Positions 6,001-11,983 of a stretch of DNA of 11,983 bases are shown one piece after another. Source of the DNA: a virus (lineage: Duplodnaviria > Heunggongvirae > Uroviricota > Caudoviricetes); IMG/VR virus record IMGVR_UViG_2574179916_000005, positions 1 to 11,983 of that record. One strand, given 5' to 3'. Numbering within the stretch: the stretch's first letter is position 1; the number at the start of each line of letters is the position of its first letter. Made by a program: the position numbers.

Positions 6001-9000
6001 ATAACGTCCCGCCTGTATGGCTGGGAGACAGCCAGCTTGACGAACTGGCAGACCTTAAAATCATCGACGATGGTCGCTATTGTGTCCGGCTGTACAAGGC
6101 AGGCCACATCAAGCCGTCAAATATTAATGCCATCGGGCAAAAGCTGGCGACGGCAGGTGTACGGGATGCGAATTATTACCCCGAGGGAATGCACAGCCAG
6201 AAGCGGGAGGAGTGGCGCGAATATCTGGAGCGTGAGCGCCAGAAAAAAATGTCCGGAGAGATACCGGAGGAAGAAAAAAACGAACAGCGAAAAACCACGC
6301 TACCAATGAGTATTGGATCTGCAGGGTACGACACACAGCTTGATTATGTCGTTAAGGGCGTGATTCCGGCTAATTCGTTGTGCAGCACATACGGCGCGAG
6401 CGGTTCCTATAAATCGTTCCTTGCGTGTTCCTGGGCGTGTCATGTTGCCACTGGTCGCCACTGGGGAGGCCGCAGGGTGGCGCATGGTTCGGTGATGTAT
6501 GTTGTCGGTGAAGGTGGCATTGGTGTCCCCCGTCGTATCAAGGCATGGGAAATCGTTAATGATGAACGGGTGAAAAATCTGTACCTGGTAAACCGCCCGA
6601 TTTTTCCGGCAGCCCCGCTTGATGTTGATGAAATGGTCATCGCTTCCCGCCAGGTTGAACGGGAAACGGGTAAACCGGTACGCATGATTATTCTGGATAC
6701 GCTGGCGCGTTGCTTTGGCGGTAATGATGAAAATGACGCGCGGGATATGGGGGCGTTTATCCGTGGATGTGACGAACTGAAACGCCGCACAGGGGTCACG
6801 GTGCTGGTGGTTCACCATTCCGGCAAGGATGAAACAAAGGGAGCGCGTGGTTCCAGTGCATTTCGTGCATCTCTGGACGCTGAATACCGTATTCGCCGGG
6901 AAGGTGCAGACAGCGAAGCTCTGGTTATCTCCTGCACCAAAATGAAGGACGCGGAGGAACTGAAAGAGGCTGCATATGATTTACGTGTGGTGGAGCTTTT
7001 TACCGACACTGACGGGGAGTTAATCACGTCGCTGGTGGTTGTGGATAAGCCGCGCCCGCCTGTTGAACTGGAACGCATCGAGGAAGCCGGGAACAAGACG
7101 GAGAATCATGCCGCGCTATGGGGATGTATCCGTTCACGCACACAGCGTGGCGATAAATGCACTATTCCGTTGTTGCGCGATGATATGAAAAAGCTGGGGT
7201 ATGAGATGAAACACTTCCGGCGCTGGCTGTACAAGCTGGAAGGTGATGGCGTTATTGCTATTGACGGTGATGACGTGCGCCCACTGTAAAAAGTGGGTAG
7301 TAAAAGTGGGGAGTGTGGGGAATTTAACAAAATTGAAACGTGATTCCCCACTTTCCCACCTGTATATACCCCAAAAAGTGGGGAGTAAAAAACACATTGA
7401 AAAACAGTACATTAGAGTCACAAAAAAAAGAAGTGGGGAGACGTTGGGTAATTTCAAAAAGTGGGGAACAAAAGTGGGGAGTGGTGAGGAATGACCAGAA
7501 AAACCAGAGATAAAACAGCGCCAAAATATCGCGCATTAGACATGACAGAGCACGCCTTAAAGGTGGCAATCAGAACAATAGACCGCCATGCCGGAGAAGG
7601 ATACGCGAAAACACATCCCGAACTGATAAGCGCATTCATGACAGCGGCGGCGGCAAACTTTGCCACGCTGACAGAGCTGGAGATAGCCGAAGCGGAACAG
7701 GTGACAACCATCAACGTTAAAACCGGAGAGCAGACAGCATGACAGCACAGATAGCGGCTTACGGGAGGCTGGCGACTGACCCGCAGTTAAAGACCACCAG
7801 CAAAGGGACACAAATGGCGATGGCGAGTATGGCGGTCCCACTGCCATGCAGTCAGGCAGATGACGGAACGGCGACGATGTGGTTATCCGTCCTGGCGTTT
7901 GGCAGACAGGCCGATGCGCTGGCCAGACACCACAAAGGCGAACTGGTGAGCGTGGCGGGTAACATGCAGGTAAGCCAGTGGACAGGCCAGAACGGGGAAA
8001 CGCGGCAGGGCTGGCAGGTTATCGCAGACAGTGTAATCAGTGCGCGAACGGCGCGACCGGGCGGCAAAAAAGGCCAGCAGGGCCAGGCTACTGACGCACT
8101 GAACAGGGCAAAACAACAGGCGGGGAATGATGATCCGTACGGGGATAACATACCGTTTTAAGCAACGAGTAACAGAAGCCGGAGTAATCCGGCTTTTTTA
8201 TGGGTCCTTCCGGTGTAGTGACCTGCCACGGGGCGGGAGCGTCGCGGGAAAAGGCTGGTTTTTGCATTTTCATGGCGGCGGCAGCATGTGTGATAATTTA
8301 TTGATAATTAAAAATTATTTCTGTTTTCACCTGTACAATATTTTTTTCTCCCTGTCATTAGACCAGTTTGCAATTAATTGAAATATATAAATAAATTTGT
8401 TTTTCACCTGCCAGATGGAGTTGCCTGTGTAAAACGTGTTCAGATGGCGGGATATTTATGCCGGATTCTCTCCGGCATTTTTTGTGTCTGAATCTTATTA
8501 ATCTATTTTTATGATAGAAATGTGTTTATCTACCACATTTATCGATCAATAATGTGCACAGTTTAGTCAGTAAGAGGAAGTTACTGTGAGTTGTATTAAT
8601 GACCTGAACACGGGCGATATCAGGGGTGGTTCCGTTCATCTGGATGCGCAGACCGTTATGCGCCTTAAGCAGTACAGGATCGACCATATAAATCATCATC
8701 CTGACAAACCATTACCAGGTGTGGCGCAGATTGTCAGACATGCCGTAAACACCTGGCTTAATCAGAATGGTTTTGCATCGGTGGGGGAATAATGAATCGC
8801 TGGTACACCATTAAGGCGGCGGATGTGCGTGGAGCGGCGGATATATCTATCTATGAGGAGATTGGCGGCTTCGGTGTTACTGCAAAGCAGTTCGCGGAAG
8901 ACCTGAAAGCCCTTGGCGATGTTTCACATATCAATCTGAGGATCCATTCACCTGGTGGTGATGTGTTTGAAGGCATCGCCATCTATAACCTGCTACGGAA

Positions 9001-11983
9001 TCATCCGGCAGACATTACGGTTTATATCGATGGTGTTGCGGCTTCAATGGCTTCGGTGGTCGCAATGGCTGGCGATCGTGTAGTGATGCCGGAGAACGGC
9101 ATGATGATGATCCATAAACCGTGGGGGATCTCTGGCGGAAATGCTGGCGATATGCGTGATTATGCTGATTTGCTGGATAAGGTGGAAACCGTGTTAATCC
9201 CTGCTTATGCCAGAAAAACGGGCAAATCAGCACAGGAAATTACCGCCATGCTGGAGGATGAAACCTGGATGGATGGTAAAGAATGCCTTAAGCACGGTTT
9301 TGCTGATGAATTGTTGCCATCCGTCAGAGCAATGGCGCGAATTGAATCGAAACGCACAGGAGATTTTTTACATATGCCGGAAACCATTAAAGGAATGATT
9401 ACACCGCCACAGGGAGCGGCAAATATTGCTGGTAATGAACAGAAGCGCATCAATGGAATAAGTGAAGTGTTTAGCCTGTTCGGCAGTCGTTACGATGGGA
9501 TCAAAATGGCGTGTCTGGAAGATGCATCATGTACACCGGAAATGGCCCGTGAAAAGCTGTTGAACGAGCTGGGGCGCGAGTCCACGCCATCCAATAAAAA
9601 TACCCCGCCTCATATCTATGCCGGAAACGGAAACATAACAGGTGATGCAATTCGTCAGGGGCTTTACTCCCGTCTTGGGTATGAACGCCCTGAACGAGGC
9701 AACCCTTACGCGATGATGAGCCTTTTTGAAATGGCCCAGGCATCACTAACTGATCGTGGTATCAGTGTTGGCGGTTTTTTAAATCGCTCGCAGGTCGTTA
9801 ATGCAGCTTTCACACACAGCAGCAGCGATTTTTCTCATATTCTGGCTGGTGGCGCTGAAAAATCAGTACTGAAAGGCTGGCAGGACAGCGGCGAAACGTT
9901 CCAGAAATGGACGCGTACCGGTTCGCTTTCAAACTTTCATGAAGCAAAGCGCGTTGGTCTGAATGGTTTTTCAAAGCTGGATAAAGTACCGGAAGGCGCG
10001 GAATATAAATACATCACCACCAGCGATAAAGGTGTACCTATTGCGCTGGCCACGTACGGGAATATTTTTTCCGTTACCCGTCAGGCCATTATCAACGATG
10101 ACCTGACCCAGTTAACTACAATCCCCATGGCGATGGGACGCGCAGCTGCCAGAACAGTTGGCAATCTGGTTTATCTCCTGTTAACCAGCAACGGCAAGTT
10201 TACGGATGGTAAAGCGTTATTCCATGCCGATCATAAAAATCTTATTGCGAAGGATATGGACATGGAGGGGCTTAACGAAGCCCGTAAGCTGATGCGCCTC
10301 CAGGAAGACGCTAACGGCGATTCGCTGAATATTACCCCCGCATTTGTCCTGGTCCCCGCCGCGCTGGAGTCTGCCGCACATCGCGCCATTCTGTCATCGT
10401 CATCACTCTTTCCGGTTGATGGCGTGAGCACTATCAATCAGAACCCCGGCATCATTAACGTGGTGAAAGATATGGCGGAGGTAATCGTTGAGCCACGTCT
10501 TGATAAAGCCAATAACAAGGAGTGGTATGTGGCAGCGGCGAAGGGTATGGACACGATAGAGGTCGCTTATCTTGATGGTATTGATACGCCATATCTTGAG
10601 GAGCAGGAGGGATTTACTGTTGATGGCGTCGCCTGGAAGGTGCGCATAGATGCAGGTGTCGCGGCCCTCGACTATTGCGGATTACTGAAATCGAGTGGAG
10701 CATGACAACAAGGGCGGCGATAGCCGCCTTTTTTTGCGGGTCCTCCCGGTGTAGTGACCTGCCACGGGGCGGGAGCGGCGCGGAAAAAGGCTAGTTTTTG
10801 CATTTTCATTCGTCATCATCATCTTTCTATCATATTGAATTTTAAGTGTTTTTATTTTTGATATGTTAATTTTGCTTATTTTGTGTTCAACATACAGCGC
10901 GTTTTTTGACCTTTTTTAAAAGATATTTGCAAGATGCATGTTTAAAACATTCTGGAGCGGGTATGGATCGGGAACTGAAAAATCTGATGCTGAACATTAA
11001 CCAGCTGGCGGCGATAGCGGGAATATGTCGCCAGACTGCGGCGGCAAGGCTGAAAAATATCCAGCCAGCCGGAGGACATGACAAGCTGAAACTCTATCGG
11101 GTGACTGACATTCTGACCTGTTTTCTTGATCTTCCCGTTCTGGCATCACTGGAAGAAATGGAGCCACACGACCGTAAGGCCTGGTATCAGTCCGAACGTG
11201 AGCGCCTCAAGTTCGAACAGGAAACGGCGCAACTCATACCCGCCGATGATGTGCGAAAAGAGATGGCTATATGGGGAGAAATCGTAAGCGAGGAATTGGA
11301 AAAACTCCCCAGTATTCTGGCACGTGATGTTGGGCTTAAACCGATGGCAGTAAACAGAGTGCAGTCAATTATTGACGATTTGTGTAATCAGATTATCAGC
11401 CGGATGGTAAAAAATGACGTAGTGAATGAGGTCGCAAAACAGGCATGATAATGACCGAATCTGAAATACTGCGATTAATCCGCTGTGCTGGTGGAATCAG
11501 CCAGTTGGCTGACGAACAGGCCGCGCAGCCGGGTAGAGTCACCGCTGAAAATTACGCGCGTGTGGTGGCTGAGGTGATGCGCCGTGACGGTATTGAGCTT
11601 AACGGCGTGGATATGCGCAACATACGAACCAGAGTCCTTGAGTTGCTGGCATACCGTCGCCGTTCTCAACAACGGAGGGAGAGCGCGAAAAATACTTATC
11701 AGTGGAAGAAGCCGGAACGGTTGCGGCGGTAATTTGTTGATATTCCTGATAGCGCAAAAGTGCGTTGGCTGGTGGGTGAGTTGCAGATCTGCAACTCGAC
11801 CATGAAATTACGGAAACTACCAGTAGTTTGGGTAGTAAGAGTAACACCCAGATTTTGGGGCTTACTTGCGATACCCAAATAAAGGGTATCGGTGGAAGAA
11901 ATATCGTTTCTCATATGTGAGTTCCGAGAGTAAGCGACTCGTCAGAACCGTATTGATATTTACTGAGAGCTCAGATCAACTTT

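Follow-up and report, generated by a model that had tools for sequence, protein, structure and literature searches.

Background

Satellites lying inside the late genes of their helper prophages, the helper-embedded phage-inducible chromosomal islands (HE-PICIs), were described in 2023 as a set of 491 elements at 14 sites (PMC10111431). We studied a stretch of 11,983 nt (positions 1 to 11,983 of the IMG/VR record IMGVR_UViG_2574179916_000005; hereafter the window, meaning this whole stretch) and consider it quite probable that it holds an element working in this way: the packaging end of an Escherichia coli lambdoid prophage whose gpA-type large terminase gene (terL) is split at codon 331 by a phage-inducible chromosomal island (PICI)-type satellite of ~10.3 kb, inserted in the same orientation and carrying as its 'late zone' gene a fusion of a ClpP-like protease with a major capsid protein (MCP).

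The element resembles the HE-PICI 11capE (PMC10111431) in three respects: it disrupts a helper gene and brings no replacement sequence, one of its genes is homologous to a helper late gene, and its gene order is syntenic, i.e., integrase (int), helix-turn-helix (HTH)/AlpA, a zone of Bro and small genes with YlcI and an Icd-like product, DUF4222, primase/helicase, an 83-aa protein, single-stranded DNA-binding protein (SSB), capsid gene and packaging protein. It differs from 11capE in its target (gpA-type terL, codon 331), in its capsid gene, a ClpP-MCP fusion and not gpE-type, and in lacking the sequence TGTATTGC. The C:CLP_protease:110 HE-PICIs and invaded tRNA-Ile2 PICIs encode ClpP-MCP fusions 78-79% identical to that of the window, followed by a cos site (L049, L050, L054, L057 and others; L numbers designate the loci compared here). 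The published attR flank of the former matches the MMIHKPWGISGGNAGDMRDYADLLDKVETVLIPAY (MMIHKPWGISGG…) stretch of the window protein, as judged by eye and not by an alignment. Unlike the window element, however, the C:CLP_protease:110 HE-PICIs have an integrase of the 11capE clade, split the helper protease-capsid gene at the catalytic His (~residue 110) and possess neither a terS copy nor a second cos. The elements of the 77-79% capsid group had one cos, downstream of the capsid gene, and no terS except in L063 (45% TerS match). One locus, L048 (IMGVR_UViG_2534681659_000014), was nested: an 11capE-clade HE-PICI with a 79% fusion lay inside residue ~105 of a 98% window-type fusion of another PICI, as in the 'HE-PICI in a PICI' described by Tommasini et al. 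(PMC10111431).

EcCICFT073, the model island of Gram-negative bacteria (Fillol-Salom 2018, 2019; PMC6092414, PMC6739421), shares with the window element the int-alpA-pri-ori layout, a capsid homolog (c1499), a lambdoid cos-type helper, two cos sites with phage-like cosQ/cosN and different cosB, and a satellite protein redirecting terminase specificity, a property presumed for the window element. It differs in its chromosomal site, in its gpE-like capsid homolog with a decoration protein, and in the use of Rpp, with no TerS homolog; unlike EcCICFT073, the window element has a true TerS paralog as packaging protein and two cos sites that flank the capsid gene. SaPIbov5 with its Ccm protein (Carpena 2016; Hawkins 2021, PMC8569155) is also a cos-type satellite with a homolog of the helper major capsid protein and offers a plausible model of size redirection. 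It differs in being Gram-positive and in that Ccm is not fused to a protease. Finally, phages cdtI (NC_009514), mEp460 and Tritos have the DUF1441-gpA-portal-ClpP/MCP head module of the helper type, but each is a complete phage in which terL, portal and tails are all intact.

A probable satellite within the terL gene of a lambdoid prophage

A first-pass annotation of the window, made from its sequence alone, had reported a protease-capsid gene with no large terminase or portal nearby. Results of profile searches showed otherwise: positions 776-1771 encode the gpA ATPase domain of TerL (E 3e-72), truncated at codon 331, the boundary between the ATPase and nuclease domains. Homology of the window to intact terL ended at 1774, and RefSeq labels the corresponding 5' copy in a sibling locus 'incomplete, missing C-terminus'. 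All the satellite core genes were on the terL strand. In the sibling locus L004 the att sites were 10,341 bp apart, and joining the flanks gave an uninterrupted 700-aa TerL open reading frame (ORF). A co-oriented disruption of a helper late gene, as in HE-PICIs, was thus found, with terL split, a stop at attL and the 700-aa ORF regained on rejoining. The predicted excision products were an attP junction CTTCCTGGATG-TAGGGTAC (also …CTTCCTGGATG followed by TAGGGTACATT…) and a restored terL junction TTCTGGATG-GAGGGTCC (also …CATTCTGGATG followed by GAGGGTCCGG…). Strains with an intact copy of the element include E. coli B1-56 (NZ_AP040249) and O145:H28 16003 (NZ_AP024924). The stop made by the insertion is a TAG at the attL junction (1769-1771); since it directly follows terL codon 331, an ATPase-only TerL fragment could be expressed in the integrated state.

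The architecture of sibling loci was taken from the best E. coli matches and from contigs encoding the identical capsid protein. On the 5' side of the element these presented lysis genes, cos, DUF1441 TerS and the gpA terL 5' fragment (~331 codons); on the 3' side, the terL 3' fragment (GpA_nuclease), a gpW-like gene, portal, a second ClpP-MCP gene (675-686 aa), a decoration protein and tail genes. The element itself was ordered int, AlpA-like HTH, Bro-N, small genes, DUF4222, primase or RepA helicase, 83-aa protein, SSB, cos, 68-aa ORF, ClpP-MCP, cos, DUF1441 and a 93-aa protein. The terL 3' half followed the element in ten sibling loci (L001-L007, L012-L014), with portal and the second protease-capsid fusion next wherever these were called or the locus extended that far; L015 had the same terL-int junction, but its sequence stops within the element. 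A truncated terL preceded int in 11 of the 11 loci whose upstream flank was inspected, which include O157:H7, O145:H28 and O111:H8 strains and comprise three helper TerS/cosB types, and seven IMG/VR contigs had the identical terL-int junction (tblastn). Among 5426 complete E. coli genomes the reconstructed attB was intact in 1332 and the int-alpA module was present in 89. In the siblings the portal belongs to the interrupted prophage and lies beyond the element after the 3' part of terL. A contiguous terL-portal-capsid module beyond the window had been named as an outcome that would argue against a satellite; such a module does exist in the siblings, but it is that of the interrupted host prophage, so the satellite reading stands. 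The annotation had also overlooked the third cos copy (67-112), the second terS (282-776) and the position of the element inside the helper terL.

The gene content was that of a Gram-negative PICI: an inward integrase at one end followed by an AlpA-type regulator, then an own primase/replicase with an origin just downstream (its function being presumed), and capsid plus terS/cos genes with no tail or lysis genes within the ~10-15 kb usual for such islands. The annotation had regarded the gene order as different from that of capsid-forming PICIs (cf-PICIs). The order int, alpA, pri-rep, capsid, terS corresponds, however, to the five core components, in canonical order, of the PICI 'Type A' of SatelliteFinder (Moura de Sousa et al. 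2023, PMC10085698). This type is found to 97% in E. coli, and prophage-embedded satellites are, according to the authors of the program, hard for it to call (PMC10085698). Portal, terL, connector, tail and lysis genes were all missing between the att sites, and for this reason the element must rely on a helper; the proposal of a capsid gene on a helper-dependent satellite thus held up, the element being bounded by an integrase and provided with its own replication module, TerS homolog and cos.

The suggested likeness to cf-PICIs did not. EcCIEDL933 (Alqurainy et al. 2023) also combines a satellite-encoded capsid protein and protease with an AlpA/int/pri backbone, but cf-PICIs encode in addition terL, portal and head-tail adaptors/connectors. 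That the window element should make whole capsids of its own kind entirely from satellite proteins, and take nothing but tails from the helper, is in our view extremely improbable: it has its own protease-scaffold-capsid fusion and TerS homolog, and the satellite fusions are a lineage apart from the helper fusions, but the defining terL, portal, head-tail adaptor and connector genes (PMC10085698) are missing and the only portal and terL sequences in the vicinity are those of the interrupted prophage.

Scrambling of a decaying prophage, in which duplication and rearrangement produced another capsid gene, another terS and additional cos sites, would require no satellite. The window is flanked by insertion sequence (IS) ends, its terL is a pseudogene, and its capsid gene, terS and cos have paralogs among the prophage parts, all of which fit such decay. 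Yet the same precise boundaries were seen in many genomes and with several helper types, and removal of the element restores the ORF; identity between the paralogs is only 57-67%, too low for recent duplications; and the element body was ~99.9% identical between the window and L004/L005, as against ~97.5% for the flanking prophage part. The replication-capsid-terS block also occurred with an unrelated integrase on the chromosome, between abgR and smrA, and with at least four integrase types in the IMG/VR survey. We regard decay as very improbable; because its block recurs elsewhere with other integrases, the element is, on this comparison, a modular mobile element and not prophage debris.

What looks like a 'broken terminase plus stray capsid gene' in a prophage region of E. 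coli can accordingly be an intact prophage with an excisable satellite and not a dead phage, which changes how the inducibility of such prophages is judged; some of them carry stx2a. In L013 (NZ_AP024924.1 1640487-1664112, O145:H28 strain 16003) stx2a was just upstream of the prophage lysis genes, and a sibling satellite split the terL of that prophage (locus positions 2169-3409 and 9989-22541). Particle production by this Stx2a prophage would consequently hinge on satellite excision. In the literature, nothing specific was found on terL-embedded satellites in Shiga toxin (Stx) or O157 prophages. Prophage Sp7 of the Sakai strain, with a P4-like Int and spontaneous circularisation, is a possible PICI but is not in terL; all the lambdoid Sakai prophages except Sp4 have an intact terminase (2009 paper).

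Three of the sibling satellites embedded in terL, L012-L014 (O157:H7, O145:H28 and O111:H8), had a 629-aa fusion (63% identical to that of the window in L012) and no terS copy. In L012, the only one of the three that was scanned, a single cos was detected, upstream of the capsid gene, with a cosN core different from that of its helper.

Integrase and attachment sites

Pairwise comparisons placed the window integrase at 21-29% identity to the 11capE, CLP110-type and abgR-type PICI integrases, which were 40-54% identical to one another; identity to 11capE Int was only 25%, as against 52-54% among members of the published clade. Because of this gap the published single integrase clade with late-gene tropism does not, by these pairwise identities (no tree was built with the published dataset), cover the window integrase.

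The published HE-PICI attP motif TGTATTGC had 0 exact matches in the window. In HE-PICIs the doubled attP motif tgTGTATTGCantgTGTATTGCa lies near -81 and +132; the window has instead a doubled motif of different spelling in a similar layout: TTTATCGC/TGTTATCGA at +108/+117, with a related TTTATTGC at -102 in the opposite arm in L004. The insertion point is none of the 14 (plus 1) listed late-gene sites. The listed terL sites correspond to Pfam Terminase_1, positions 132 and 246 (PMC10111431), and the string 'GpA' was absent from the att alignments and from the available portions of the supplementary tables (one table being available in part) of that paper. Both the integrase lineage and the gpA-terL insertion site appear, from these comparisons, to be undescribed.

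The cos sites

The capsid gene was bracketed by two copies of a sequence of roughly 46-80 nt (copy A, 8202-8273; copy B, 10738-10809), and a third copy preceded the helper terS. A 46-nt degenerate pattern built from the three copies themselves gave three matches in the window (67, 8202 and 10738) against 0 in 200 shuffles. All three aligned with lambda cosQ-cosN (ACG-GGGCGGGAGCGT-CGCGG vs. ACG-GGGCGGCGACCT-CGCGG in lambda), and the deposited genome of the inducible phage cdtI starts exactly with the letters GGGCGGGAGCGT and ends in …CCACG. With cosQ and cosN, a 12-nt cohesive-end core and an adjoining terS, these are predicted to be lambda-type cos sites. The first-pass view of a terminator plus cos on each side of the capsid gene was borne out, a hairpin and U-run standing before each of the two satellite copies and a lambda-type cosQ-cosN within both.

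Beyond this common core the two satellite copies diverge. Positions 8231-8420, i.e., copy A and the sequence downstream, shared 93% identity with the first 190 nt of the cdtI genome (NC_009514, L096) and 88% with the helper cosB zone of L002/L003, two helpers with a TerS that has only 42% identity to the helper TerS of the window. This region ends in a remnant of a cdtI-type terS start, whose ATG is now GTG and which contains an early stop; it looks like a captured cos-terS region that lost its gene. The cosB zone of copy B was ~70% identical to that of window-type helpers. Judged by their different cosB types, the two satellite cos sites are not equivalent, and this dual layout suggests two helper specificities.

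The cosN of copy B reads GGGCGGGAGCGG (the differing base is at 10778), vs. GGGCGGGAGCGT in copy A and in the helper. The G at the 12th overhang base was conserved in L001-L003, L006 and L007, and the chromosomal element L008 has it in both its copies. Predicted cosN ends are GGGCGGGAGCG followed by T or G, at 8231 (copy A) or 10767 (copy B), and since one overhang base differs, an end made at copy A would not pair perfectly with one made at copy B. The IMG/VR contigs of 9-13 kb with the capsid fusion were checked for ends at cosN; their cos positions were internal, which is uninformative on packaging.

The protease-capsid fusion gene

The 637-aa ORF had been described from its motifs as ClpP-like catalytic residues joined to an HK97-like capsid domain, with a replication module and a terS as neighbours, and searches agreed on each point. 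Residues 31-175 matched Pfam CLP_protease (E 1e-34), and the profile search proposed for the capsid domain returned Phage_capsid_4 at residues 336-633 (E 2e-52); the protein scored 896.8 bits with NCBIfam NF045540, 'ClpP-like prohead protease/major capsid protein fusion protein', whose curated cutoff is 475, and the PHROGs assignment was also to protease-capsid. The top matches in a PDB sequence search were ClpP subunits, over residues about 42-180. Ser85 and His108, the ClpP serine and histidine, were unchanged in an alignment with five relatives. The neighbours were confirmed as an AAA_25 helicase and SSB on one side and a DUF1441/PHROG-141 TerS homolog on the other.

The satellite fusion was 57-61% identical to the fusions of helper prophages. 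Satellite fusions lacked both the 17-aa N-terminal extension and the 29-45-aa Pro/Ala/Thr-rich linker of the helper fusions, and in the alignment common substitutions and deletions separated the two groups. The missing extension and linker, together with the many shared substitutions, suggest that the satellite fusions are an old satellite lineage and not a recent capture. The identical 637-aa protein was indexed in 75 blocks of a public assembly collection. In L015 (NZ_CP157152.1, strain UTAK-5; locus 18679-23134) the satellite protease-capsid gene was broken by ISEc23, of the IS66 family, a second instance of IS66-type decay in this element family. The small 68-aa ORF next to the capsid gene also had a counterpart in L012-L014, where a small gene was annotated at the same position.

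A satellite may nevertheless carry the fusion as nothing more than a captured helper late gene, backup or neutral, with no part in capsid size or satellite-specific assembly, its multimers being packaged in full-size helper heads like those of EcCICFT073. Tommasini et al. propose late-gene capture by PICIs, and knockout of a PICI capsid gene was tolerated (PMC10111431); EcCICFT073 is found in phage-sized capsids despite c1499 (PMC6739421). We hold this to be rather unlikely, though not negligibly so. The satellite fusions of elements only 63-79% identical have lineage-specific losses and substitutions in common, and the catalytic residues and full length were kept, which argues for long-term selection on a satellite-specific function.

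Proposed working of the element

What the sequences show directly is the insertion, an ORF that can be restored, co-orientation, gene content and cos homology; the working outlined here is drawn by analogy with 11capE and EcCICFT073. As an embedded PICI, the integrated satellite would keep the helper TerL broken. On induction of the helper, late transcription from the lysis genes would run via cos, terS and the 5' part of terL into the co-oriented int-alpA genes, and integrase and AlpA would then excise the element by a crossover in CTGGATG, restoring the 700-aa terL. Precise excision, after replication of the composite, is known for 11capE (PMC10111431). The satellite would replicate at its iteron origin with the RepA-like helicase and SSB, and the helper TerL would cut and package satellite concatemers at the satellite cos sites, guided either by the satellite TerS at copy B or by the TerS of a cdtI-type helper at copy A. 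EcCICFT073 has two functional cos sites, with a cosB unlike that of the phage (PMC6092414, PMC6739421). Portal, connectors, decoration protein, tails and lysis would come from the helper, and the self-processing satellite capsid subunit may assemble on the helper portal, either by itself or together with helper subunits, and the resulting shell might be smaller. This capsid-assembly step is the weakest of the scheme, because the capsid homolog of EcCICFT073 had no detected role in lambda interference and that island fills full-size heads.

Several observations weigh against an embedded, helper-dependent satellite that makes use of its own capsid gene. The evidence consists of sequence and analogy, and neither induction nor excision, replication, packaging or assembly of capsids was observed in this study. 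Among 50,697 deposited phage genomes there was no satellite-length record (none covered at least 80%), the search giving only short matches to the head genes and cos of cdtI/mEp460-type phages. The single-base difference between the overhangs of the two satellite cosN copies is a further point, and the copy of the satellite in the window may be stranded or disabled by the IS2 and IS66-family insertions at the ends of the window. Even with 11capE, the published system, no particles could be obtained (PMC10111431). The part played by PICI capsid homologs is not settled: in EcCICFT073, deletion of c1499 did not restore normal lambda plaque formation or relieve interference (PMC6092414), and the island is packaged in full-size heads (PMC6739421).

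Precedents exist for the capsid gene, for the gene order, for the paired cos sites and for the embedding, and what looks new here is modest: the framework of 2018-2023 is extended and current understanding is not overturned. Three points would be added to satellite biology, namely that helper embedding goes beyond one integrase clade, that gpA-family terL genes are targeted as well, and that the paired cos of enterobacterial PICIs can bear two different helper specificities. We also advance, tentatively and without favouring it, a broader idea: that a second integrase lineage (P4-type, 21-29% identical to the HE-PICI clade) independently evolved helper embedding at the ATPase/nuclease boundary of gpA-type terL in cdtI/O157 lambdoid prophages, including the Stx2a prophage in O145:H28, and that the satellite holds the packaging motor hostage until excision and hedges with two cos sites of different cosB specificity, one derived from cdtI-type helpers and one fitting its own TerS. 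If this were true, such satellites could act as a gate on the particle production of Stx-converting prophages and their relatives.

Other features and the ends of the window

The features of the window are collected in Table 1. The iteron-like repeats are probably the replication origin, by analogy, since their position just 3' of the initiator gene matches that of the PICI ori (PMC6092414). A 317-aa ORF at 3980-4933, called in some assemblies, probably does not represent a gene: it runs across the YlcI/YnfO-like gene of the minus strand, its end lies within the Icd-like ORF, and RefSeq annotates only a pseudogene fragment in that region. A Pfam search at E<=1 gave nothing usable for the eight small ORFs with no assigned function. 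An Rfam scan of the whole window at E<=0.1 detected no P4-type immunity RNA (C4/IsrK), a kind known from some PICIs; its sole match, the eukaryotic lncRNA family ST7-OT4_3, was sub-threshold (25.7 bits vs. 50) and was dismissed as chance.

Table 1 Coordinates of the predicted features in the 11,983-nt window
Feature	Position	Strand	Evidence
Helper prophage cos; cosQ-cosN core 67-112, predicted nick before 96, cosB-like zone up to the terS start	67..221	+	Three-way repeat, lambda cos alignment, pattern search
Helper prophage small terminase, DUF1441 family	282..776	+	Pfam DUF1441 E 3e-41; PHROG 141 E 6e-73; between cos and terL
5' fragment of helper gpA-type terL, ATPase domain, 331 codons, ending at the insertion-made TAG	776..1771	+	Pfam GpA_ATPase E 3e-72
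attL crossover core CTGGATG; element starts at ~1769	1762..1768	+	Common to attL, attR and reconstructed attB
Doubled TTATCG motif (TTTATCGC / TGTTATCGA), +108/+117 from core; candidate integrase arm-type sites	1876..1893	+	Inference
Satellite tyrosine integrase, P4-type arm-binding domain	1933..3171	+	Pfam Arm-DNA-bind_3, Phage_int_M, Phage_integrase
AlpA-like HTH, 67 aa, putative excisionase/activator	3184..3387	+	PHROG 66 'excisionase and transcriptional regulator' E 9e-7; Pfam HTH_17 below threshold; right after int as in Gram-negative PICIs
Bro-N protein, anti-repressor-like ('Bro zone')	3445..4023	+	Pfam Bro-N E 2e-18; PHROG 2593 anti-repressor E 9e-82
Small-gene zone: YlcI/YnfO-like 4348-4527 (-), Icd-like 4727-4933 (+), three small + ORFs	4348..5572		Position match to RefSeq annotation of L001 and to gene calls of L004
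DUF4222 protein, usual partner of PICI primases	5578..5877	+	Pfam DUF4222 E 2e-24; same position in 11capE
Replication initiator/helicase, RepA-like AAA_25	5874..7289	+	Pfam AAA_25 E 6e-44; PHROG primase/helicase families; RefSeq 'helicase RepA family protein' in L008
Iteron-like repeats, three AAAAAGTGGGGAGTAAAA copies ~84 bp apart, directly 3' of the helicase gene	7288..7500	+	Repeat families D7/D8
Conserved 83-aa protein	7491..7742	+	PHROG 1231
SSB	7739..8161	+	Pfam SSB E 7e-16
Intrinsic-terminator-like hairpin and U-run, 3' of SSB	8175..8201	+	Fold -15.8 kcal/mol, z -5.05
Satellite cos copy A; cosQ-cosN 8202-8247, predicted left end 8231, then cdtI-type cosB zone and dead terS start	8202..8420	+	Repeat, lambda alignment, pattern
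Second terminator-like hairpin, between cos copy A and capsid operon	8458..8484	+	-17 kcal/mol, z -5.6
68-aa ORF, conserved partner; stop overlaps capsid gene start	8586..8792	+	PHROG 4934 E 7e-34
ClpP-like prohead protease/scaffold/HK97-type major capsid fusion, satellite lineage	8792..10705	+	Pfam, PHROGs, NF045540; 637 aa
Terminator-like hairpin and U-run, 3' of capsid gene	10712..10737	+	Fold -16.2 kcal/mol, z -4.83
Satellite cos copy B; cosQ-cosN 10738-10783, 12th overhang base G not T, cosB-like zone leading into satellite terS	10738..10892	+	Repeat, lambda alignment, pattern
Satellite TerS homolog (DUF1441)	10966..11448	+	67% identical to helper TerS in the window; Pfam, PHROG 141
Conserved 95-aa protein, last gene of the element	11445..11732	+	PHROG 1561 E 7e-52; in all sibling elements
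Start of right attachment arm, cut at 11930 by IS66-family insertion; attR core beyond the window	11733..11930	+	Comparison with L004

Both ends of the window were IS sequences. Positions 11931-11983 corresponded to the terminus of an IS66-family (ISCro1-like) element in the satellite right arm, inserted at 11930, ~185 bp short of where the attR core lies in L004. Judging from its ends, the window looks like a short-read contig, probably one that broke at IS repeats. Positions 1-55 were an IS2 terminus that abuts the helper cos, inserted just upstream of it; the 58-nt IS2 end was present, adjoining an IS2 transposase, in 4492 of the 5426 E. coli genomes.

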